Assembly: GCF_054482595.1 (NCBI RefSeq)
Contig: NZ_CM137008.1
Strand: one strand, 5' to 3'
Length of the DNA stretch: 64,000 nucleotides
The position numbers and the translations under genes are program-made. Shown one piece after another: positions 13,565-56,703 of the stretch (within the stretch, counting starts at the first letter, position 1; each line of letters starts with the position of its first letter). The notes beneath the pieces are model-generated. The model saw only the letters and a program-made list of their open reading frames with translations. It ran no database searches and was not told the origin of the DNA.

Positions 13565-14050
13565 TCAGTCGATGATGCGCATAATGGCGCTGCATTCCGG
13601 ATGCTGCAGGGCGTAATCCCGCAGCCGGTAATAATGGACCGTCATGGCATAACACTCCGTACGACAGGCGTGATGACTGTACGTCATCAGACAGGCAGCA
13701 ATGCCGGCAGCTTCCGGACTCATTTCAGCGCGGTTACCGTTCATGGCATTGAACAGTACCCATGTTTCGTCATCATCGTCATCCGGTTCGGGTGCCATAA
13801 ATGCCCCGCCGTTGTTCAGGGTGTACAGATTCCAGATACCACCGCAGTAGTCTTCACACAGACGGTCCATCCAGCCGAAGACACGGGGCTCCAGGGCCAC
13901 CCACTGTGGAATGAGGCCAAAGTGCTGCGGCCAGAAGCTGATGCGCTGTTCATCAGGGACTATGGTGGCAACCAGCTGAGGCTGGTCATTCCCTGATGCA
14001 GCGGTTACGGAAACAGAAGGAGTGGTGGAATTATGCAAGACGGTTGTCAT
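13565..14050 (-). CDS. antirestriction protein, KlcA/ArdB-like (YafX/YfjX family)
   Basis: ORF track 161 aa; acidic stretch PEPDDDDDETW; conserved position upstream of radC-like gene in CP4-type islands. Confidence 0.6.
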   Translation of the reverse strand: MTTVLHNSTTPSVSVTAASGNDQPQLVATIVPDEQRISFWPQHFGLIPQWVALEPRVFGWMDRLCEDYCGGIWNLYTLNNGGAFMAPEPDDDDDETWVLFNAMNGNRAEMSPEAAGIAACLMTYSHHACRTECYAMTVHYYRLRDYALQHPECSAIMRIID

Positions 14051-18504: not shown

Positions 18505-19377
18505 TCAGAAGAAAATCCAGTTCCATACAGCGCGGGCAACAGAGACCACCGTGTCACGGACGACACGCAGAACCGTACGAGCCACAGAGGCAACACAGAC
18601 GCTCTCCGCCGTGTCAAATATCCGGTCCACCGCACCGGTAAACTGTTCACGGGCCTGCCCCCGGACAGATTCCGTGCACAGCTCGTCCTGCAGGCGGGTC
18701 ATCAGGGGACTGGCGGCATGGTCGGGAAGTGCTGTCATGAGCGCACTGACCAGCGTATCCAGTTCCCAGCCGGTGCGGGCCGATACGGCCACAACCGGAT
18801 GTACGGGCCGGAACAGACGGAATACCGCCTCCGTTTTTTCGCGAATGTTCTGTGCCTGTGCGGGAGAAGGCTGAATACCGGCCATATCCCATTCATGGCA
18901 GGGCTCCGTTTTATCGGCCTGCGTCACCACAAACAGCACCTGCTGATGTCCCCGGTGCAGGATGTGTCGCCAGAAATACTCATCCACAGACAGGGCACGG
19001 TCATCGGCTTTAATCAGCCACAGTACCAGGTCAAGTTCAGGCAGAATGTCACGGTACAGGGCTTCATACTCTGCATCCCTGTCCCGGCTCTCGCCCACCC
19101 CGGGCAGGTCAGTGATAACCATGCTGTGACCGTGGCCACTCAGACGGAAGCGCCGCACTTCCCGGGTGCCGGCGTGAACATCACTGACCGGGGTGACCTC
19201 CCCCTGAAACAGTGCATTACAGAGTGAGGATTTACCGGCCCCGCTTTTCCCCATAATGCCAATCACGGGTTCGTGACTGGTGAGTTTACGCAGATGTTCC
19301 AGGATGTGACGGGAAAGTGAGTAAGGCAGGGAAGAAAGTGGTTTTTCAATTGCCTCAATGGCATCAGACGGATTCAT
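18505..19377 (-). CDS. yeeP: YeeP/YkfA-family GTPase (50S-ribosome-binding GTPase fold)
   Basis: Internal start MNPSDAIEAIEKPL...; P-loop GIMGKSGAGKSS; DxxG motif DLPGVG. Confidence 0.75.
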   Translation of the reverse strand: MNPSDAIEAIEKPLSSLPYSLSRHILEHLRKLTSHEPVIGIMGKSGAGKSSLCNALFQGEVTPVSDVHAGTREVRRFRLSGHGHSMVITDLPGVGESRDRDAEYEALYRDILPELDLVLWLIKADDRALSVDEYFWRHILHRGHQQVLFVVTQADKTEPCHEWDMAGIQPSPAQAQNIREKTEAVFRLFRPVHPVVAVSARTGWELDTLVSALMTALPDHAASPLMTRLQDELCTESVRGQAREQFTGAVDRIFDTAESVCVASVARTVLRVVRDTVVSVARAVWNWIFF

Positions 19378-19640: not shown

Positions 19641-21212
19641 ATGACAAGTATTCAACAACGAGCAGAACTGCACCGCCAGATATGGCAAATTGCCAATGAT
19701 GTCAGAGGTTCTGTTGACGGATGGGATTTTAAGCAATACGTTCTGGGCGCGCTTTTCTACCGTTTTATCAGCGAAAATTTTTCCAGCTATATTGAAGCCG
19801 GTGATGACAGTATCTGTTATGCGAAACTGGATGACAGCGTAATTACTGATGACATTAAAGACGATGCCATCAAAACTAAAGGCTACTTCATCTACCCAAG
19901 TCAGCTTTTCTGCAACGTAGCTGCGAAAGCAAATACCAATGACAGACTGAATGCAGATTTAAACAGTATCTTCGTTGCTATCGAAAGTTCTGCTTACGGT
20001 TACCCTTCAGAAGCTGACATCAAAGGTTTGTTTGCTGATTTCGATACCACCAGTAACCGCCTGGGTAACACCGTTAAGGATAAAAATGCCCGCCTGGCTG
20101 CGGTTCTGAAAGGGGTTGAAGGGTTAAAACTTGGTGACTTCAACGAACATCAGATTGACCTGTTCGGCGATGCCTATGAGTTCCTGATTTCTAACTATGC
20201 GGCGAATGCTGGTAAGTCAGGCGGCGAGTTTTTTACACCGCAGCATGTCTCTAAGCTGATTGCACAACTGGCTATGCACGGGCAGACCCACGTTAACAAA
20301 ATCTACGACCCAGCCGCAGGTTCCGGTTCGCTGTTGTTACAGGCGAAAAAGCAGTTTGATGACCATATCATCGAAGAAGGCTTTTTTGGTCAGGAGATCA
20401 ACCATACGACCTATAACCTGGCGCGTATGAACATGTTTTTGCACAACATCAACTACGACAAGTTTGATATCAAGCTGGGCAATACGCTGACTGAGCCGCA
20501 CTTCAGAGATGAAAAACCGTTTGATGCCATCGTTTCTAACCCGCCGTATTCAGTGAAATGGATTGGCAGCGATGACCCGACGCTGATTAACGATGAGCGT
20601 TTTGCCCCGGCTGGCGTCCTGGCCCCCAAATCAAAAGCTGACTTCGCGTTTGTATTACATGCGCTGAACTATCTTTCGGCCAAAGGTCGCGCCGCGATTG
20701 TCTGCTTCCCGGGTATTTTTTACCGTGGCGGCGCAGAGCAGAAAATCCGTCAGTATCTGGTCGATAATAACTATGTCGAAACCGTGATTTCACTGGCACC
20801 GAACCTGTTCTTTGGCACCACCATTGCCGTAAACATTCTGGTGCTGTCTAAACATAAAACGGATACCAAAGTTCAGTTTATTGACGCCAGCGAACTGTTC
20901 AAAAAAGAGACTAACAACAATATCCTGACCGATGCCCATATCGAACAGATTATGCAGGTATTTGCCAGCAAGGAAGATGTTGCTCATCTGGCGAAATCTG
21001 TTGCGTTTGAGACTGTTGTCGCGAATGACTATAACCTGTCGGTGAGCAGCTATGTGGAAGCGAAAGATAACCGCGAAATTATCAATATTGCTGAACTGAA
21101 TGCAGAGCTGAAAACCACGGTCAGCAAAATCGACCAGTTGCGTAAAGATATTGATGCAATTGTGGCTGAAATTGAAGGCTGCGAGGTGCAGGTAATGACT
21201 CCAACTTATTGA
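19641..21212 (+). CDS. hsdM: type I restriction-modification N6-adenine methyltransferase subunit HsdM; last ~7 codons supplied by IS1
   Basis: 523 aa; SAM-binding motif [10 protein letters not shown] and catalytic NPPYS; C-terminus ...[14 protein letters not shown] reads into the IS1 inverted repeat (IS1 begins at 21191). No hsdS or hsdR nearby. Confidence 0.8.
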
Positions 21213-21958
21213 TAGTGTTTTATGTTCAGATAATGCCCGATGACTTTGTCATGCAGCTCCACCGATTTTGAGAACGACAGCGACTTCCGTCCCAGCCGTG
21301 CCAGGTGCTGCCTCAGATTCAGGTTATGCCGCTCAATTCGCTGCGTATATCGCTTGCTGATTACGTGCAGCTTTCCCTTCAGGCGGGATTCATACAGCGG
21401 CCAGCCATCCGTCATCCATATCACCACGTCAAAGGGTGACAGCAGGCTCATAAGACGCCCCAGCGTCGCCATAGTGCGTTCACCGAATACGTGCGCAACA
21501 ACCGTCTTCCGGAGCCTGTCATACGCGTAAAACAGCCAGCGCTGGCGCGATTTAGCCCCGACGTATCCCCACTGTTCGTCCATTTCCGCGCAGACGATGA
21601 CGTCACTGCCCGGCTGTATGCGCGAGGTTACCGACTGCGGCCTGAGTTTTTTAAATGGCGGAAAATCGTGTTGAGGCCAGCGCCCATAATGCGGGCGGTT
21701 GCCCGGCATCCAACGCCATTCATGGCCATATCAATGATTTTCTGGTGCGTACCGGGTTGAGAAGCGGTGTAAGTGAACTGCAGTTGCCATGTTTTACGGC
21801 AGTGAGAGCAGAGATAGCGCTGATGTCCGGCAGTACTTTTACCGTTACGCACCACCCCGTCAGTAGCTGAACAGGAGGGACAGCTGATAGAAACAGAAGC
21901 CACTGGAGCACCTCAAAAACACCATCATACACTAAATCAGTAAGTTGGCACCATTACC
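21191..21958 (-). mobile_element. IS1 (768 bp)
   Basis: Terminal inverted repeats ggtaatgactccaacttattgat (21191-) and atcagtaagttggcaccattacc (-21958); internal insA/insB. Flanking 9-mers differ (cgaggtgca vs caaaaatac), so no target-site duplication. Confidence 0.9.
21206..21903 (-). CDS. insAB: IS1 transposase genes insA (21628..21903) and insB frame (21206..21709); InsAB' made by -1 frameshift
   Basis: Ins[44 protein letters not shown]...; InsB ...[21 protein letters not shown]... Confidence 0.9.
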
Positions 21959-22061
21959 CAAAAATACATGCAACTAAAACAGGGTTATTTACAGACAAAT
22001 TTAAAATTAGCTGAAAGTTAATATTATTTTTTCGGAGCCTTTTCTGGCCCCGAATATTGCT

Positions 22062-35534: not shown

Positions 35535-37427
35535 TTAGCCAAGAATCGAACGGCGAACTTTATAATAATATTTGATGAGCTTATTTCTTCTTGGCGAACC
35601 GACAGGAGCATATTTGTTAACATATGGCATTAAAGCTCTTTTAATCTTTGTCTGCAGTAACACGGTTTGCTGCAGTTCAGTATGTTGGTTAGGTACTACC
35701 GTGGCCACAGGTAACTGGCGATAGTAGATTTCTTTCTCCCATGGCGTACTTAAAACATTCTCAAGAAAATCATCATAGAAATCGACTTTCTCAGTATTCC
35801 ATGGTTTGTTTTCACCCGCATAGTGAATCATTTTTGGATTTCTTCTGGCTTGCAAAAAGCGCATATAGGTTGAAAACTTGAGATTCGGGAAGAAATCATC
35901 GGTATTACCATTACCATGGTACACGTTCCATTCTAATGGTAAGAATTTGACTCGGCCAAAGAAGACTTTGTTCATGATATCCTGATCTAAGAACCAATAC
36001 TTTTTGGCTTTCAATGCTGACATCAATTGAGCAAAGGTATTCTCTGTAACCATTTGTTCGACATTAAAAACAATAATCCCGGCCTGAAAATATTCGTCAG
36101 GATTAGTCATTCCTAATGTCTTTTTCAGGTATTGCTCTGCAGGCATAATGCCATCATCTGATTCTGACATGGTACCAAACTTCACAAACCCTTCCATGAC
36201 GATGTCTTTAACAGCGGCAACCAGGTTAGTGCCGATCTCGACATCCAGAAGTGTCGCCAAATCAGCCTTCACCACGGTGTCAGAATCGATAAACACAACT
36301 TTTTTATACTCGCGGAAAAGTTGCGGGATGAACAAGCGCGCATAGGTCGACGCACTAAAATGTGCACGGGTATGAACATCACTCATCTCAGTGAATGAAT
36401 TCACATCAAAAAAGCGCAATGATATGTTGTTATGACCAGCAACTAGCTTGATAAGGCGTTGTTTATTTAAATGACTGACCTTATTTTCCAGAACAACGAT
36501 ATCATAGTTTCTGCTCGCATCAGAATGGAGAACAATTGAATTGATTAATGCCCCGCCACTTAATGCATAGTTATTATCAAAACTAATAACAACCGGTACG
36601 CTTTCGTCAAAAACGGGCTTTAATTTACCATTAAATGTTTCAGCAGTAACAAACGTGCGCTGTAGTTCTTTTATTTTTAGCTGTTTATCTTGTTGACATT
36701 TGATGATATAGATATTGAATAAACGCTCAGCAATGTGTCCTATAACTCGTTTTTCTTGAGCGTTGTAGTTATTCATCGAAATCCGATCTTCAAGATTAGA
36801 CAAAATAGCAAAAAGCCATTCAGAATAATCCAGGAACATGTCTTTGCGCATAACAAACATGTTCGTATAATAACCATCAGTTGCATTATTGAATTGTTGA
36901 ATCGCAGCTTTATATTGTGGATACAGCTCTTCAACGACATCCAGGGCAGACTGATAGTCTTTAATGTGTAAAAACTCACCTTTTGCATAATGATCAAGGT
37001 TATTCTTACTTCCTGCCGATGTTACCGACCATTTTTTGGGTAACAGCAGATCATATCCATCGACGCAGGTGCTTATGGATTCATCACTTAATCCAAACTG
37101 GCTTTCGTATTCGGCATTGATGAGCGGGTAGTTGACTACCCCCCAGTTATCCTCAGGATGATTTTGTTGTTCTGCAAAGTTCAAGTGTCTGCGGTAATGC
37201 ATGAATCCCACATAGTCAGCCAGAGATTCATTCTTCCACACCCAGTAGTGGGCCGTCAGCTCACAATAGAAGGGGTTTTTAAAGGAAATGTTGTCTCCGC
37301 TATCATCCCCTTCACAGCCAATATCATTATAAGTATTAGCCTTCCCGACATGCAGTGGTTTAATAATAGAGGCATTTAGAAAAGCACTGGGTTTGTGGTG
37401 ACATGTATAAATTTTGATACTATTCAT
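35535..37427 (-). CDS. wbbM: bifunctional galactosyltransferase, WbbM-like (DUF4422 N-terminal plus GT8 C-terminal, 630 aa)
   Basis: N-terminal CELTAHYWVWKN-containing domain; C-terminal GT8 (VVISFDNNYALSGGALINSIVLH, DSDTVV); size matches Klebsiella WbbM (recalled). Confidence 0.65.
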   Translation of the reverse strand: MNSIKIYTCHHKPSAFLNASIIKPLHVGKANTYNDIGCEGDDSGDNISFKNPFYCELTAHYWVWKNESLADYVGFMHYRRHLNFAEQQNHPEDNWGVVNYPLINAEYESQFGLSDESISTCVDGYDLLLPKKWSVTSAGSKNNLDHYAKGEFLHIKDYQSALDVVEELYPQYKAAIQQFNNATDGYYTNMFVMRKDMFLDYSEWLFAILSNLEDRISMNNYNAQEKRVIGHIAERLFNIYIIKCQQDKQLKIKELQRTFVTAETFNGKLKPVFDESVPVVISFDNNYALSGGALINSIVLHSDASRNYDIVVLENKVSHLNKQRLIKLVAGHNNISLRFFDVNSFTEMSDVHTRAHFSASTYARLFIPQLFREYKKVVFIDSDTVVKADLATLLDVEIGTNLVAAVKDIVMEGFVKFGTMSESDDGIMPAEQYLKKTLGMTNPDEYFQAGIIVFNVEQMVTENTFAQLMSALKAKKYWFLDQDIMNKVFFGRVKFLPLEWNVYHGNGNTDDFFPNLKFSTYMRFLQARRNPKMIHYAGENKPWNTEKVDFYDDFLENVLSTPWEKEIYYRQLPVATVVPNQHTELQQTVLLQTKIKRALMPYVNKYAPVGSPRRNKLIKYYYKVRRSILG

Positions 37428-37441
37428 CTTATTACCAATTA

Positions 37442-38182
37442 TTAAGCCATTGCTTGCTTGTAAAGTTCAATGATTCTCTCTGCTGAGCCAATTTCGCGGA
37501 GTTTATGGTTTTCGATCCAAACAACTCTGTCACAGATTTTTTCAACATCACTCATATTGTGGCTAACGAATAATATCGTTACACCCTTATTTTTGAAGTC
37601 TCGTATTGTTTGTATACATTTGGCCTGGAACGAAATGTCACCGACAGCAAGTACCTCATCGATAATAAGTATATCGGGTTCTACCTGGCTGATGACAGAG
37701 AATCCAAGCTTCGCAAGCATACCACTTGAGTACACGCGAATAGGTTCGTCAATGAAATCACCCAGCTCGGAGAACTCAATTATCCGATCCATCCGTTGCT
37801 GAACCTCTTTGCGGCGTAGCCCAAGCAGGGTCGCATTGAGATAAATATTTTCTCGCCCGGTTAATTCAGGGTGAAAACCGCCGCCTAGCTCAAGCATTGA
37901 GGCAACGCGTCCCTGGGTTGTAACAGTGCCTTTTGTAGGCTTAATGACGCCGGCCACCAGCCCGAGGGAGGTACTTTTCCCTGCGCCGTTACGACCAATC
38001 AGCGCTACGGCCTCGCCTTTACCCACGGTGAAGGTAATGTCTTCGATCGCAAGATATTTACGCCCTTTTAACAGCTGAAAAGCTCTTTTAGGGTGAAATA
38101 CGAGATCCTTAATTCCTGAGCCAATATGGTGGTAAAGAGGATACTCTTTCGTAACGTGACTAAAGTTTATTACTGGTTCCAT
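37442..38182 (-). CDS. wzt: O-polysaccharide ABC exporter ATP-binding protein (246 aa)
   Basis: Walker A GRNGAGKST, signature YSSGM, Walker B LIIDEVLAVGD; start overlaps wzm stop (taATG). Confidence 0.82.
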   Translation of the reverse strand: MEPVINFSHVTKEYPLYHHIGSGIKDLVFHPKRAFQLLKGRKYLAIEDITFTVGKGEAVALIGRNGAGKSTSLGLVAGVIKPTKGTVTTQGRVASMLELGGGFHPELTGRENIYLNATLLGLRRKEVQQRMDRIIEFSELGDFIDEPIRVYSSGMLAKLGFSVISQVEPDILIIDEVLAVGDISFQAKCIQTIRDFKNKGVTILFVSHNMSDVEKICDRVVWIENHKLREIGSAERIIELYKQAMA

Positions 38183-38961
38183 TACAAAATCTCTGCAAAT
38201 CGATATTTTAATTTATTAAAAATACTCAGGCCCACAATTGTCAGGACTAAACCTGTAATGTAAAGGATTGAAATATATTCATAATTTAAGACGCCATCCA
38301 TGAACAGCTGCCGCCAGCTGAGGATCATGCTTGCCAGAGGATTATAGGTAATAATCCAGCTAAATTTTTCAGGAATCATATCTGACGCATATAATATCGG
38401 CGTGCAATAAAACATGAGCATGATACCAAGGCTGACAAATCGCTCTAAATCCCTGAAGAACAGATTTAGCGTAGAAAATATGATTGAAATACCAAATGTA
38501 AAAATCACCTGACCAAGCGCAATAATTGGTACGCCCCAGAGCCATGAGAGCGATGGACGCATACCATACACGAACAGGAATGCAATAATCACAGGAATTG
38601 TACACAAGAAATGTACCCCTTCCATCATGACATTACTCAATGGAATAACTGAGCGCGGAAAAACTGTTTTTTTGATTATTTGCGCATTGGCTATAAACGA
38701 AAACAAGGAATTTGTCGCCGAGCTGGCAAACCATTGCCACGGAAATAAACCGGTAATCAAGAAAAGGGTATAATTCGGGATCTGCACTCGCATAACGAGC
38801 TTAAAAATGAAATAATATATCATTGCAAAAAGCAGTGGATTCGCAATTGACCATAAGTAACCAAATACGCTGCTTTTATAACGTACCTTTAAATCTTTGT
38901 TTGTTATAACAACAAGAAGATCAAACAAATACCCTATATTATACTTCATTTTTATACTCAT
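38182..38961 (-). CDS. wzm: O-polysaccharide ABC exporter permease (ABC-2 type, 259 aa)
   Basis: Six predicted hydrophobic segments; first gene of the operon downstream of the ops element. Confidence 0.8.
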   Translation of the reverse strand: MSIKMKYNIGYLFDLLVVITNKDLKVRYKSSVFGYLWSIANPLLFAMIYYFIFKLVMRVQIPNYTLFLITGLFPWQWFASSATNSLFSFIANAQIIKKTVFPRSVIPLSNVMMEGVHFLCTIPVIIAFLFVYGMRPSLSWLWGVPIIALGQVIFTFGISIIFSTLNLFFRDLERFVSLGIMLMFYCTPILYASDMIPEKFSWIITYNPLASMILSWRQLFMDGVLNYEYISILYITGLVLTIVGLSIFNKLKYRFAEIL

Positions 38962-51272: not shown

Positions 51273-52259
51273 TCACTTATTAAAATGCCCCCAACGGAAA
51301 TACATGTCACATGCCATCATAAAATCGTTATGCCAGAGGAATCGACAATAGAAAAAATAGTAAATTAAGCACGGTACATAGCAGAGTAAAAAATAGGCTT
51401 CAAACCAAATCCGCCATTCCACAAGCGTTGCCAATACCGACACCAGCGTAATCCACATCACTTCAATAACCAGCAATATGAATAACCGAAGCCAAAGCGG
51501 CTTGGCAAAAAAGGTCGACAACACATTTTCACTGGAGAAAAAGAGATCGATTTCCTGCAAAAAAAGCCTGCCCAAAAAAGCGTACCGCCTGGAGAAGCGC
51601 AGAAAAAACAGATTAATCGCCAACACTACGCCACAAAGAATGAGCAATGCAATTATCGATTTAAACGTTAACCACTGCCCCTCTATCACAAAAGAATCAC
51701 TGTTACGCAACGGGCTGATAGTAAGCAGGTTAACAACCGTTGAGATGCACACCGAAAGCAGCACATAGCGAGTCAGACTTTTATATTTTACTTTTTTCGC
51801 TACTGAAATAGCGACCTGCTTGACATAACTGGTGCGGATCATCCGAAACAGCAGAAAGATAACCAACGGCCCAAGTAACGAAATCAGGAACAGCGCATAT
51901 AACGAGGGTAGACGCTGGTATAGCCCCCAACTCATTGCACTCAACATGATTAACGACAGAAATCCTGCCACCAGAGGTTGCGTAATAAATAATTCTATTT
52001 TGTGGTTCTGCTTTTTCTTAAACCACGAAAAATCGATATTCTTCGTGACGCATTTATAAGCCCAGTACGCCTTGAGATCAAAAATAAAATTATACAGCAC
52101 CAGGGCCAGAATCCCACTAACGACACCAATATCCTCTGATGGAAAAGTAAATCCTGCATTTTTCCAATAAAAGCCTATCAGAATAAGTCCAATAGCATAA
52201 ATGTATATCAGACTTCGTTTATCCTGAAAGCGAATAAAAGTTAAATAATCAGGAATCAT
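51273..52259 (-). CDS. ycdU: inner-membrane protein YcdU (328 aa)
   Basis: ORF track 328 aa, multi-pass hydrophobic; K-12 backbone gene next to serX. Confidence 0.85.
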
Positions 52260-53200
52260 TTGAATACCTTCGCATCACTAAATGCTTTACGACAATGCAT
52301 AACTCGTTGCTGATCCACGCCAGCGAAATCATTTAACATATTCCCCAAATAGGGCTTATTACTTATTTCAAGGAAAGCTACCGAGGTTGGCATATTCAGA
52401 AATGTATCGAGAGATTCAGTCCATTTCACCGTATGAGTTAAGTGTAATGAGAGATTTTCTTTGATAATTGACGGAGCGACCTCGCTTTTTGCTGTTACGT
52501 TCATCAGAACCTGATGCTCTGGCGAAGCGATATCCAGTCCGGCAAGATAATCGCGCATTGCCTGAACGCCGTCTTCCATCAAACGCGTGTGCCAGGCACC
52601 GCTCACACCGAGTTTAACCGGTTCGTATCCAGCGGCCATCAGCAGCGTGGCAAATTCATTCAACGCAGCCTGCGTTCCCCCAATAACCTGCTGGCGCGGC
52701 GTGTTATCACAGCTAATATCCAGCGCAATGCCTGATTCCGTAATCATCGTCTGCAGTTGTTCGCGGTTGATGCCTTTAACCGCCAGCATTGCGCCTTTAT
52801 TTCTCTGGCTTTCGTCATGCATTAGGCTGGCTCTGAAGTGAATCATGCCAAATAGCGTCTCAAGAGAAATAGCTCCAGCGGCGTAGAGCGCACTGTATTC
52901 ACCAACGCTGTGTCCGCAGGAGCCCACAACCGTTAAATTCTCAAGACGCTCGCGGCACAGGGTATAGAGCGTTACATTAATTGCGGTCACCGCCAGTTGT
53001 TGTACCGTCGTTTGAATAAGGCGATTCATCGGCCCTTTCTGACACAGGCGACGCAGGTTCAGTCCGGAAATATCGCTGGCACAATCCCAGATATGTTTTG
53101 TACTGGCGTTGAGATCCCAAAGATCGCTGCCCATACCAATAACCGGATTACCCTGACCGGCAAAAAGCAGTACTGTCGGTTGTGAAGCATTATTCATCAT
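52256..53200 (-). CDS. FabD-like acyltransferase (malonyl-CoA:ACP transacylase family, 314 aa)
   Basis: [12 protein letters not shown] and active-site GHSVGE motifs; occupies the position of the K-12 ymdE fragment (recalled). Confidence 0.75.
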
Positions 53201-53210
53201 CTCTTTATCC

Positions 53211-54599
53211 TTATAGATAGTATTTAAAGCCCAAATAAAGGCCTAACGTGTCGCCAAAAAGCGCAAATTCAGAATACCGACTTCCCAGCGCGCTATAGCC
53301 ACCGGCATAGGCTTCAAGCTGGTTACTGATAGCGCTGAGCGGCGTGGAATAATGCAGGCCCAGCAACGTGCTGCCATCAATGAGATTGACCACCAGCGAA
53401 GGCTGCAGCGTCGACTCTCCCGCCAGCGGCAGACTGGCCCAGGCGTTCAGATAGTGCTTACCCTGCAGCATCCCCTGATTGGCGGTATTGCTGATTTCTG
53501 AAGCCATCAGGTATTTGTAAGAATCAAATGCCTGATCCAGTGGCGCATAGCCGGTTGTGGTATTGAGGAAGTCAATTAACTCGCGCTGCTGACGCTGTTC
53601 AGCGCGCGAATACCCCTCGCTCTGAAAGTAATACTCAACGCCAAACACGCTGAAATTATCGCTGGTGTACTGCCCCCCCAGGGCCAGCTCCACGCCGCTT
53701 TCGTCTTTCGTTTCATAGAGCGAATCCGGAAACTGATATTCCTCGACCTGCGCCGTCTCATGGTGGGAAAGATGCCGCCATTGTTGGGAGCGGTGGTAGG
53801 CTGCGTCGACATTCAGCGTCAGCTGCGGGGTGTAGTGATAACTGTCAGACAGCGCGAGTGACGGCGATGGTCCGAGCCGCACATTGACTGTCGGCGTGTG
53901 CTCACCAAAGCGATGGTCGCTGTAGCTCAGCAGATAGGCTTCATCGCTGTTTCCCTGCTGATTAGCAGACCAGTTGCCAGACGTCACATAGCGTTTGTCG
54001 ATGGTGGCTAACTTCGGTATGACGCTCGCCGAAAACGCATAATCGCGTGTATCCAAGTTCATTTTTGCGCCCCACGATGACGCCTGATACGCCGATGTCA
54101 TTTTGGGATCGTGCAAACGTGTCGACTGGAATCCGGTGTAATAATGCGTTTGCAAATCAGAAGGCGAACGCAAAAAGAACATTCCTGACGGCGCGGCAAA
54201 TTTTCCAGCTTCAAATTGAACGCTGTCCGAAGCGCTATAGACCAGACTGAGGCGGTTAATTAACGCACGCGTGCGGCTATCATCCGTTTCGAATTTCCCT
54301 GCGGGTTTAAGCGCATATTCGTTTATTCCATACAGATTGAGCTTAAGCTCCAGCGTATTGTCGATTATCGAACAACCGCTATTGATGCCAATCCCCGCCT
54401 CCTGATAACCGTTGTGACGTGTGTAGGGATTTTTGCCTGCAATCTGCCAGGCCGAAGCCTGTTTATTGACATAAGACACCTGCTCGTAAAGCGTCACATC
54501 GCTGTTTTGTGCCACCTCGTCACCTGACAGGCAATCCGCCTGTACCGTCAACGGCAGCGCAACACACAGCAACGAAGAGATCTTCAGCGTACGTTTCAT
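53211..54599 (-). CDS. secreted protein with signal peptide (putative outer-membrane protein, 462 aa)
   Basis: N-terminal MKRTLKISSLLCVALPLTVQA; Tyr/Ser/Gly-rich alternating sequence suggestive of beta-strands. Confidence 0.45.
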   Translation of the reverse strand: MKRTLKISSLLCVALPLTVQADCLSGDEVAQNSDVTLYEQVSYVNKQASAWQIAGKNPYTRHNGYQEAGIGINSGCSIIDNTLELKLNLYGINEYALKPAGKFETDDSRTRALINRLSLVYSASDSVQFEAGKFAAPSGMFFLRSPSDLQTHYYTGFQSTRLHDPKMTSAYQASSWGAKMNLDTRDYAFSASVIPKLATIDKRYVTSGNWSANQQGNSDEAYLLSYSDHRFGEHTPTVNVRLGPSPSLALSDSYHYTPQLTLNVDAAYHRSQQWRHLSHHETAQVEEYQFPDSLYETKDESGVELALGGQYTSDNFSVFGVEYYFQSEGYSRAEQRQQRELIDFLNTTTGYAPLDQAFDSYKYLMASEISNTANQGMLQGKHYLNAWASLPLAGESTLQPSLVVNLIDGSTLLGLHYSTPLSAISNQLEAYAGGYSALGSRYSEFALFGDTLGLYLGFKYYL

Positions 54600-55384
54600 T
54601 TCGCACCTCGCTGAATATACTCTTTGGTGAAATGAAACTCCGGCAGCGATTCCAGACGAACATCGCTGTACTCCATCACTGAATAGTTATTGCCGTGACG
54701 AACATCGGTAACGGTTATTTTCATGGGTCGCGTTTTCCCCAACACCGGCTGGAAATCCTGATACAACACTTCTTTTATTAACTGGTCATCCTGCGAATAA
54801 TAGGCCGCCTTCCACGGGCGATTATCACCGTCTTTTTCAACGTAATAGATAACCTTCGGCCAGGTGATATCCGCCGATTTACGCACCAGCGCCAGCTTGT
54901 AACACTGCTTTTCAGCACACGTGACTTCCCCCACCAGGGTCGAGTCATAGGCATATTCAAAGTTAGTGACAATGACATCGCCGTTAGAGATTTGCCCAAT
55001 TAATCTTTGTTGCCGTGAAATAGGCATAGGACGTCGCAGTTCCGGCGTGTAAAACCATAAATCGTACCAGTCGGAAAGCATGATTTTTCCTTTATCTCGC
55101 GGCGGATAAATAAAACGCACCAGCGAGCGTGCATCCGCTTTTTCATTACCCTGCGGTTTCATAAAGCGCATGGAAATATCGAGGACCTGTTTATTCTCTG
55201 GCTGGGTTGCGCCCGCTTTATATTCCGTTACCGTCAGCGTGTAACGAAACGGTTTATTCGGCGAACGAATTTCGTCAGCGCGACGAATTATCTCCAGCGC
55301 CTTATTATCTGTGCTCGCCGCCTGAACGCACGACGTAGCGAGCCACAGGCAAGCAAACCACTTGCCGTAAAAAGCCATATTCAT
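54596..55384 (-). CDS. periplasmic LolA-like / lipoprotein-sorting-like protein (putative, 262 aa)
   Basis: Signal peptide; adjacent to an FtsX-type ABC permease; family recalled, not searched. Confidence 0.4.
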   Translation of the reverse strand: MNMAFYGKWFACLWLATSCVQAASTDNKALEIIRRADEIRSPNKPFRYTLTVTEYKAGATQPENKQVLDISMRFMKPQGNEKADARSLVRFIYPPRDKGKIMLSDWYDLWFYTPELRRPMPISRQQRLIGQISNGDVIVTNFEYAYDSTLVGEVTCAEKQCYKLALVRKSADITWPKVIYYVEKDGDNRPWKAAYYSQDDQLIKEVLYQDFQPVLGKTRPMKITVTDVRHGNNYSVMEYSDVRLESLPEFHFTKEYIQRGAK

Positions 55385-55392
55385 AATTAGCC

Positions 55393-56703
55393 CTATGAGA
55401 ATTTAAATGCGTCAGAAATATTCAGCCGGGAAGCACGTAAAGCCGGTAACACAGAGGCGCCTGTTGCTGTCAAAATGGGTAATACCACCGTCACCCAAAT
55501 CAATTCCGGGTTACTGGTTTTTATAAAGGCGGTATAGCCGATGGTTTGTCCAGGCGATGGCGGCATCGCAATACCATAAAGATTAATAATCCAGGCTAAC
55601 ACGCCCCCCACCAGCAGGCTGCCGACGGCGCCAATCACACCAATAAAAATGCCTTCTGTCAGAAACAAGCGCGTGACGTGAAGCGGCTTCAGGCCTATGG
55701 CACGCAGAGTGGTAATTTCACGGGTGCGCTCAACAATGTTCATTGCCATCGAGTTGCCGATCATGAAGATGACAATCAGCGCAACAATCAGCTTGATGAA
55801 GAAATAGATCCCCGATAGCAACCCTTCAACCTGTTGATAAAAGAGTGAAACATCACGCCAGTCTTTGACCACCAGCGGCAAATGATTGCGTTCGATAAAT
55901 TGACGCAGCTTTGCGCTAAACGCCGCGGTGTCATCTTCTTTAAGCAGAATTAGCACTTTGCTGACGCCATCCGTACCCATCATGCGCTGCGCGGTGTCCA
56001 GCGGGATCTTCATCGCGACATCGTCATAATCTTTAATGCCTGACTCAAAAATGCCACGCAGTTTTAGCGACAATGCGCCCTGCCCGCCCGCCGTGTTGAC
56101 CACCATCACATCCAGCCAGTCGTCGTATTTCGCATTCAACGTTTTCGCCAGACCGCTGCCCAGGGTGATTTCATCACCTTTTACCTGGGAAAGATCGCTC
56201 CCCGCGATAATCTTATCGAACGATCCCAGCTTTAAAGCGGGTAACGGCTCCACCCCCAGCGCGGAGAAATAGCTGGAGGTTTCGCTCTCGTAATGTGAAA
56301 TTACGCCAGTAAACTCCAGTTGCCCGGAGAGCGTGGAAATATCCGCCGCCAGCGTCGGGTCCGACAAAATAGCTTTCTTTAACGCCGCATAATCGGCAAT
56401 CAGGCTCTTATTTTTATTCGACGTTTCAAAATAGTGCTGATTGTAAATTTGTACATGACCAATATTGGTACGAATCGTCTGCTCTTTCAGGATCCAGAAA
56501 GAGTAATCAATAAATCCGCCATATAAAAAAATTGCCACGCCACCCAATACAATGGCGGTTATAGTAGAAAAAGAGCGACGCTTGTGGCGAAAGAGATTCA
56601 AAAATGCAAATTTGACATCTCGTGAATAAAACAGAAGCTGATAAAACACAAAAAACAGAATCAGCAGCAGAACGCTATTAACAGCTAAAATTTCCCCGGA
56701 CAT
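55393..56703 (-). CDS. ABC transporter permease, FtsX/LolC-MacB family (436 aa)
   Basis: N-terminal TM helix, large periplasmic domain, C-terminal 3-TM bundle (…ITTLRAIGLKPLHVTRLFLTEG…). Confidence 0.7.
   Translation of the reverse strand: MSGEILAVNSVLLLILFFVFYQLLFYSRDVKFAFLNLFRHKRRSFSTITAIVLGGVAIFLYGGFIDYSFWILKEQTIRTNIGHVQIYNQHYFETSNKNKSLIADYAALKKAILSDPTLAADISTLSGQLEFTGVISHYESETSSYFSALGVEPLPALKLGSFDKIIAGSDLSQVKGDEITLGSGLAKTLNAKYDDWLDVMVVNTAGGQGALSLKLRGIFESGIKDYDDVAMKIPLDTAQRMMGTDGVSKVLILLKEDDTAAFSAKLRQFIERNHLPLVVKDWRDVSLFYQQVEGLLSGIYFFIKLIVALIVIFMIGNSMAMNIVERTREITTLRAIGLKPLHVTRLFLTEGIFIGVIGAVGSLLVGGVLAWIINLYGIAMPPSPGQTIGYTAFIKTSNPELIWVTVVLPILTATGASVLPALRASRLNISDAFKFS

Follow-up and report, generated by a model that had tools for sequence, protein, structure and literature searches.

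Methylation by type I restriction-modification systems requires an M2S1 complex, and an M subunit without HsdS has no DNA specificity. Insertion sequences of the IS1 family are about 768 bp long, are bounded by imperfect inverted repeats of about 23 bp and promote deletions of adjacent DNA, a classic IS1 behaviour known since gal-region studies of the 1970s. In the enzymology of type I systems, HsdM needs HsdS for DNA recognition, and complementation between subunits is what defines the type I families, with EcoR124 as the prototype of type IC (PMC3874165). In EcoKI, loss of approximately 43 C-terminal residues abolishes assembly (PMC2647291). The absence of target duplications as a result of adjacent deletion or of recombination between insertion sequences has been documented (PMC11708052). 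The D-galactan II genes have a role both in Klebsiella O1 and in E. coli O19; homologues are present in E. coli SMS-3-5 (PMC4237132).

Examination of a 64,000-nucleotide stretch of contig NZ_CM137008.1 (RefSeq assembly GCF_054482595.1), hereafter the window, revealed a locus in which an hsdM gene, a single IS1 and D-galactan II genes follow one another. The window carries a CP4-44-like E. coli island located at tRNA-Ser beside ghrA, whose genes include DUF4942, CbtA/YeeU, an antirestriction gene, Ag43 and a GTPase gene. In CFSAN061769, the same tRNA-Ser/ghrA site is occupied by DNA 99.7% identical to the window over 50 kb. Throughout the CP4-44-like tRNA-Ser island family, hsdM has on its left a conserved YeeP-like GTPase gene (18505..19377 in the window, minus strand; Pfam MMR_HSR1), whose product is annotated in every related island as a GTPase family protein. 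The intergenic region 5' of hsdM is colinear with that of intact islands.

The hsdM open reading frame (19641-21212, plus strand) encodes 523 amino acids, including a tail contributed by IS1. Its predicted product contains an HsdM_N domain (PF12161, E=7.6e-17) and an N6_Mtase domain (PF02384, E=4e-121) according to Pfam. It is about 99% identical over 517 amino acids to the HsdM of EcoR124II (PDB 7BST; 1153 bits), with four substitutions visible among the 517 aligned residues, and 99.0% identical to the 518-amino acid HsdM of the intact island of C3728. On the basis of these alignments, the gene is assigned to type IC (EcoR124 family).

Native HsdM has 518 amino acids and ends in EGCEVQK. Comparison with Pfam, EcoR124II and C3728 delimits the native part of the gene to codons 1-517 of 518 (19641..21190, plus strand), so that K518 alone is lost in the window. 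In place of K518 and the native stop, the right inverted repeat (IRR) of IS1, read in the hsdM frame, provides six final codons (VMTPTY) and a TGA (21191..21212, plus strand), as established by direct comparison of the junction with C3728 (locus L002). In that locus the native hsdM stop overlaps the hsdS ATG within AAATGA; the break in the window lies 3-4 nt 5' of the hsdS start codon, one G being common to the native sequence and to the IS1 end. The first-pass annotation had rightly traced the hsdM frame into the IS1 inverted repeat, and its statement that the 3' end of hsdM is replaced by IS1 stands as far as the origin of the end is concerned, but overstates the loss. It had also named a native C-terminus as potential counter-evidence: 517 of the 518 residues are indeed native, but the final residue and the stop come from IS1. 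HsdM is essentially full-length and retains its C-terminal HsdS-binding region.

Within the window the gene is also an orphan, as had been claimed at first reading. A tblastn search of the window with the type IC HsdS and HsdR of an intact island returned no match, the same approach found no trace of either gene in eight related carrier loci, and no other hsd gene appears in the annotation of CFSAN061769 or among the Pfam domains scanned for over the final 12 kb of the window. The complete hsdM-hsdS-hsdR set found in cis in the intact relatives is thus lacking in the window.

The IS1 that terminates hsdM (21191..21958, minus strand) is an intact 768-bp element with an IS1B-like body. It has intact insA (21628-21903; 91 amino acids) and insB' (21206-21709; 167 amino acids) frames, joined by a -1 frameshift at an intact A6C motif, TTTAAAAAAC (about 21646-21655). 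The IRR, which begins with GGTAATGACTCCAACTTATTGAT, faces hsdM and the left inverted repeat (IRL), which ends with CACCATTACC, faces wbbY. Membership of the IS1 family is indicated by the length of the element, by its terminal ends (GGTAATGACTCCAACTTATTGAT and GGTAATGGTGCCAACTTACTGAT) and by the frameshift organisation. The RefSeq annotation of this position is likewise an IS1B-family transposase with a programmed frameshift.

No 9-bp target duplication borders this IS1, the left flank being CGAGGTGCA and the right flank CAAAAATAC, in agreement with the first-pass annotation. Such an absence is expected if a deletion or a recombination came after insertion. No other IS1 copy and no matching 9-bp duplication were found in the window, and a composite transposon was rejected, since the element stands alone without a partner. 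The exact 768-bp sequence was found at this locus only. The nearest other IS1B copies differ from it at positions 490, 645, 651, 761 and 765, and its IRL tip, GGTAATGGTGCC, corresponds to that of the Klebsiella plasmids. A clean single-crossover chimera between IS1B and a plasmid IS1 is borne out only in part: plasmid-type alleles stand at positions 645, 651, 761 and 765, with IS1B-type alleles at 666 and 669 in between. From its pattern of alleles, the window IS1 is a mosaic.

A chimeric join at a repeated sequence had to be considered for such a junction, since IS1 occupies a median of 11 places per genome and is a classic site of misassembly. In about 35 complete E. coli genomes, sequenced independently and coming from different hosts and countries, the hsdM-IS1 junction aligns in a single piece, which makes an assembly or annotation artefact exceedingly improbable and identifies the junction as a real, inherited structure.

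Across these genomes the junction is followed by three different right flanks. In the window, in SMS-3-5 and in about 25 others, wbbY follows; in CUVM53, ET82, F1053 and GDSC2239PM the flank is CGAACAGCGTTC, belonging to a site-specific integrase or its remnants; and in AH25 it is a Csu-type fimbrial operon. The left 324-372 bp of IS1 are invariant among the carriers of the junction, whereas the right part of the element co-varies with the cargo. Where wbbY is absent, the right part is IS1A-like with the canonical GGTGATGCTGCC tip; where wbbY follows, IS1 always carries the plasmid-type tip. As the left part is invariant and the right part follows the cargo, this IS1 acts as a mosaic recombination joint.

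The intact form of the island has the order GTPase-hsdM-hsdS-hsdR-IS1, with hsdS overlapping hsdM by ATGA. The GTPase-hsdM context continues as hsdM-hsdS-hsdR in C3728, cS76a, S115, 2017.04.03CC and TST3, and in four of these five islands an IS1 lies 145 bp past hsdR with its IRR toward hsdR. The junction between the region downstream of hsdR and IS1, ...GCTCAATTTGCA followed by GGTAATGAC, was established by direct reading of the C3728 and S115 sequences and is present in 45 of 5426 complete E. coli genomes. In each copy examined, IS1 is oriented as in the window, with the IRR facing hsd. The comparison with intact islands had been proposed in the first-pass annotation: the relatives have hsdM-hsdS-hsdR-IS1 with the same IS1 orientation, and the window lacks the hsdS-hsdR segment.

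S115 provides the closest counterpart, with the order GTPase-hsdM-hsdS-hsdR-IS1-wbbY-wbbZ. Its IS1-wbbY junction is identical to that of the window, and the 6.2 kb extending rightward from IS1 are 99.8% identical. The IS1 copies themselves are near-identical and share the allele set 490G, 645A, 651A, 761C and 765T, which was found in the window-locus IS1 and in S115 and nowhere else. Relative to S115, 4,637 bp are absent from the window (4,670 bp in C3728 coordinates), corresponding to the final hsdM codon and the stop, the whole of hsdS and of hsdR, and the 145-bp spacer. The two loci thus differ, as in an adjacent deletion, by the DNA between the IS end and the new joint, the other IS1 junction being unchanged. 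Together with the intact relatives, this difference makes an IS1-associated loss of hsdS and hsdR the best explanation of the locus, as had been suspected at the outset, with hsdR then named only as a possible part of the loss. The hsdM genes of S115 and the window differ at 46 of 1550 nt (3%), and the S115 IS1 has a foreign, divergent patch at positions 355-435. Because of this divergence and this patch, S115 may be a recombinant that regained hsdMSR through a crossover within IS1 rather than an ancestor-like form. These sequence data are compatible with either status for S115 and with more than one order of events. In its general form the island has hsdMSR-IS1, and the S115 and window states are in either case related through IS1.

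On the IRL side of IS1, the cargo consists of the D-galactan II genes wbbY-wbbZ (22062..25191). A 103-bp spacer (21959..22061, no strand assigned), which is part of the Klebsiella-plasmid module, separates the IRL from the stop codon of wbbY, in line with the earlier observation that the DNA beyond IS1 is the 3' end of a WbbY-like gene. In Pfam searches, wbbY (22062-24284, minus strand) encodes a 740-amino acid protein with GT1 and GT2 domains and wbbZ (24382-25191, plus strand) a protein of the pyruvyl-transferase family. Homology between the window and Klebsiella plasmids spans 21191-26520, through IS1 and wbbYZ and into ISKpn26, and nucleotide identity is 100% over 21959-25400. The IS1-wbbY junction, ...CACCATTACC followed by CAAAAATACATG, is identical in three loci (L006, L007 and L014), in S115 and in the window.

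These observations bear on the claim of the first-pass annotation that a single IS1 deletion, running from hsdM to wbbY, removed hsdS (and possibly hsdR) and at the same time joined the restriction-modification remnant to the polysaccharide genes. The position of IS1 between the two, the lack of a target duplication and the absence of both hsdS and hsdR are all compatible with it. The IS1-wbbY junction is, however, base-identical in at least 16 plasmids (most of them from Klebsiella, others from Raoultella and E. coli) that have unrelated left flanks, and it occurs in S115 on the 3' side of a complete hsdMSR; it therefore predates, and is independent of, the loss of hsdS-hsdR. Moreover, an IS1 adjacent deletion alters one junction only, and the hsdM-IS1 junction also occurs with other right flanks. 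A single deletion of this kind is accordingly very unlikely, and this part of the earlier proposal is abandoned: the observation itself is confirmed, its interpretation partly supported. Homologous exchange with a Klebsiella plasmid is the most likely way in which the wbbYZ module was acquired. ISKpn26 probably also took part in recombination with the plasmid module. ISKpn26 also gave rise to further variants: C21 and HZDC01 carry an inversion, and EC17CM12 has lost wbbYZ.

We consider it likely that hsdS-hsdR were lost by adjacent deletion, that HsdM is silent without its partner, and that the wbbYZ module was joined by recombination within IS1. In this scheme, the precursor would have had the order GTPase-hsdM-hsdS-hsdR-IS1, the IRR pointing toward hsdR from 145 bp past it. 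We infer that the IRR end transposed intramolecularly into the hsdM/hsdS boundary, producing an IS1 adjacent deletion that would have removed about 4.6 kb, kept the element together with its other junction, and left no target duplication. The ready-made IS1-wbbY-wbbZ unit of Klebsiella plasmids would have joined the island IS1 by homologous recombination within the element, which would then serve as a swappable joint for the right-hand cargo. The IS1B-type alleles at 666 and 669, which depart from a clean single crossover at the right end of IS1, count against this scheme.

The final structure fits equally well an adjacent deletion and a recombination between two direct IS1 copies. In the latter route, a second IS1 in the same orientation would have inserted at the hsdM/hsdS boundary with a 9-bp duplication, and RecA-dependent recombination between the two copies would then have deleted hsdS-hsdR and one IS1. 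The end product would be the same and likewise devoid of a target duplication (PMC11708052), and the IS1 copies at the locus are visibly recombinogenic mosaics. The hsdS 5' region is a frequent IS1 target in other lineages: insertions occur there at three other positions, recognised as two-piece matches (H222-H236) whose spans exceed the query length by about 54, 84 and 94 bp. The two-IS1 intermediate, with IS1 at the site seen in the window and hsdS to its right, was nevertheless absent among the genomes listed with a single-piece junction and from eight carrier loci read base by base, and this route needs two events with matching orientation where the adjacent deletion needs one. We judge the two-step route unlikely. 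The adjacent deletion is favoured because it is a single event, starts from a widespread precursor and does not call for an intermediate that is unseen in the junction-bearing genomes.

Regarding function, the orphan HsdM would be expected to show no enzymatic activity in a cell that does not provide a type IC HsdS in trans, and the predicted phenotype of the system is r-m-. A role as a solitary methyltransferase of the Dam/CcrM type was not assigned, since HsdM depends on HsdS (PMC3874165). Alternatively, hsdM may have been retained because its product works with a type IC HsdS (and HsdR) from another source in the cell, such as an IncF or IncI plasmid or a second locus on the chromosome. Complementation occurs among type IC subunits (PMC3874165), the retained 517 of 518 residues include the region that binds HsdS, and the open reading frame is unbroken in every carrier examined. 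Homologues of type IC hsdM are common in E. coli (730 plasmid places; 1552 of 5426 genomes), and on about 11 of 31 carrier chromosomes hsdM is matched more than once. Any complete type IC system nevertheless brings its own hsdM and would make the window copy redundant; the hsdM match is the only one on 20 of the 31 carrier chromosomes, including that of SMS-3-5; and the carrier alleles are nearly identical, so the unbroken frame may merely reflect a recent origin. Retention for a partner in trans therefore seems improbable, and association of the modified HsdM with a foreign HsdS, possible in principle, is a speculation.

A broader proposal combines both aspects of the locus, the IS1 beside hsd acting as a standing docking site for repeated exchange of Klebsiella-plasmid cargo and HsdM being kept for incoming type IC systems. 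We regard it as decidedly doubtful. If it were true, capture of wbbYZ would turn a galactan-I O-antigen cluster into an O1/O19-type cluster, and HsdM could, for instance, bias assembly toward methylase over nuclease and thereby ease plasmid establishment.

The locus would mark a lineage that lost a type IC restriction barrier and whose methylome should lack the corresponding type I motif. As current annotation still calls hsdM a "type I R-M subunit M", the gene may be miscounted as a defence system. The loss at hsdM is explained by a well-known behaviour of IS1, as ordinary mobile-element-driven gene loss of low novelty, and leaves the current understanding of IS1 and of type I systems unchanged. 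From the sequences compared, a modestly interesting by-product is the role of IS1 as a point of exchange between E. coli islands and Klebsiella plasmids: one element serves as the recombination joint between an E. coli tRNA-Ser island and the O-antigen genes wbbYZ of Klebsiella plasmids, which bears on how O19/O1-like antigens arose in E. coli.

Compared with EcoR124I/II, the window HsdM has the same HsdM_N and N6_Mtase architecture, and the hsdM-hsdS-hsdR order with its ATGA overlap is that of the intact island relatives. The window differs in lacking hsdS and hsdR, in the replacement of the final K by VMTPTY and in the chromosomal location of hsdM in a tRNA-Ser island, whereas EcoR124 is carried by an IncFIV plasmid. 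The intact hsdMSR-IS1 islands (C3728, TST3, 2017.04.03CC and S115) share the GTPase-hsdM left context and the IS1 orientation, and S115 among them also shares the IS1-wbbYZ right side; unlike the window, they have kept hsdS, hsdR and the 145-bp spacer. SMS-3-5 carries its island after infA, whereas that of the window lies at tRNA-Ser beside ghrA.

The IS1-wbbY-wbbZ module of Klebsiella plasmids has the same IS1-wbbY junction as the window, but the body of the plasmid IS1 is only about 93% identical to that of the window and its left flank is unrelated, with GAGCGGAATATC where the window has hsdM. Finally, as in known IS1 adjacent deletions and IS-IS deletions, the element is intact, one junction is kept and the other is new, no duplication is present and the orientation is preserved. 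The mechanism is not unusual; the endpoint happens to lie in the hsdM/hsdS overlap, so that hsdM stays almost complete.

Comparison of the IS1 copy that joins hsdM to wbbY in the window (21191-21958) with its counterparts in further loci (L006, L007, L011-L014 and L017-L019) revealed mosaic sequences. The left 324-372 bp of IS1 are invariant across all compared loci carrying the hsdM|IS1 junction, and the right portion and the IRL tip change together with the right-hand flanking DNA. Yet another IS1 mosaic is found on the Klebsiella plasmid pRHBSTW-00995_3. One island with the same junction occupies two different tRNA-Ser genes (SMS-3-5, L001, versus the window, EC17CM12, L011 and L012): it lies after infA in SMS-3-5 and C21, whereas in the window, CFSAN061769, EC17CM12, GDSC2239PM and AH25 it lies beside ghrA.

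A search of complete E. coli genomes with an hsdM-plus-IS1 query also returned matches from other lineages (H222-H236), including ETEC O25 strains and ATCC 43886, which are about 54, 84 and 94 bp longer than the query and are underlain by an hsdS annotation. These longer matches suggest that IS1 independently entered type IC hsdS at its 5' end, and the region of the hsdM/hsdS boundary therefore looks like a recurrent IS1 target. In C3728 (L002, 15221-16460), whose island retains hsdMSR, pgaD directly adjoins the IS1 located downstream of hsdR; the remaining island up to the pga operon has been lost by another IS1-side deletion.

On the other side of the junction, the region corresponding to 21936-27300 of the window is remodelled by ISKpn26 in the sister genomes C21 (L004) and EC17CM12 (L005). 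In C21 and HZDC01, two ISKpn26 copies flank an inverted wbbYZ segment and the final 23 bp of IS1 have been cut away; in EC17CM12 a deletion of wbbYZ begins 19 bp past IS1. In the window, debris of IS256, ISKpn26, IS3 and IS903B separates wbbYZ from a Klebsiella O1/O2-type, ABC-transporter-dependent rfb cluster of the same island (31047-38961, minus strand), which is bounded by IS903B (30077-31045) and contains wzm, wzt, a DUF4422 WbbM-like gene, glf and three glycosyltransferases.

The island with the type I remnant hsdM also carries an antirestriction-protein gene in the RefSeq annotation (13565-14050, minus strand), as well as a CbtA/YeeU toxin-antitoxin pair and Ag43. Finally, a cluster adjoining ycdU (52256-63990, minus strand), truncated by IS3 in CFSAN061769, encodes an acyltransferase, two ketoacyl synthases, a LolA-like protein, a MacB/FtsX-type ABC exporter and a GCV_T-like protein, a gene content that is aryl-polyene-like.
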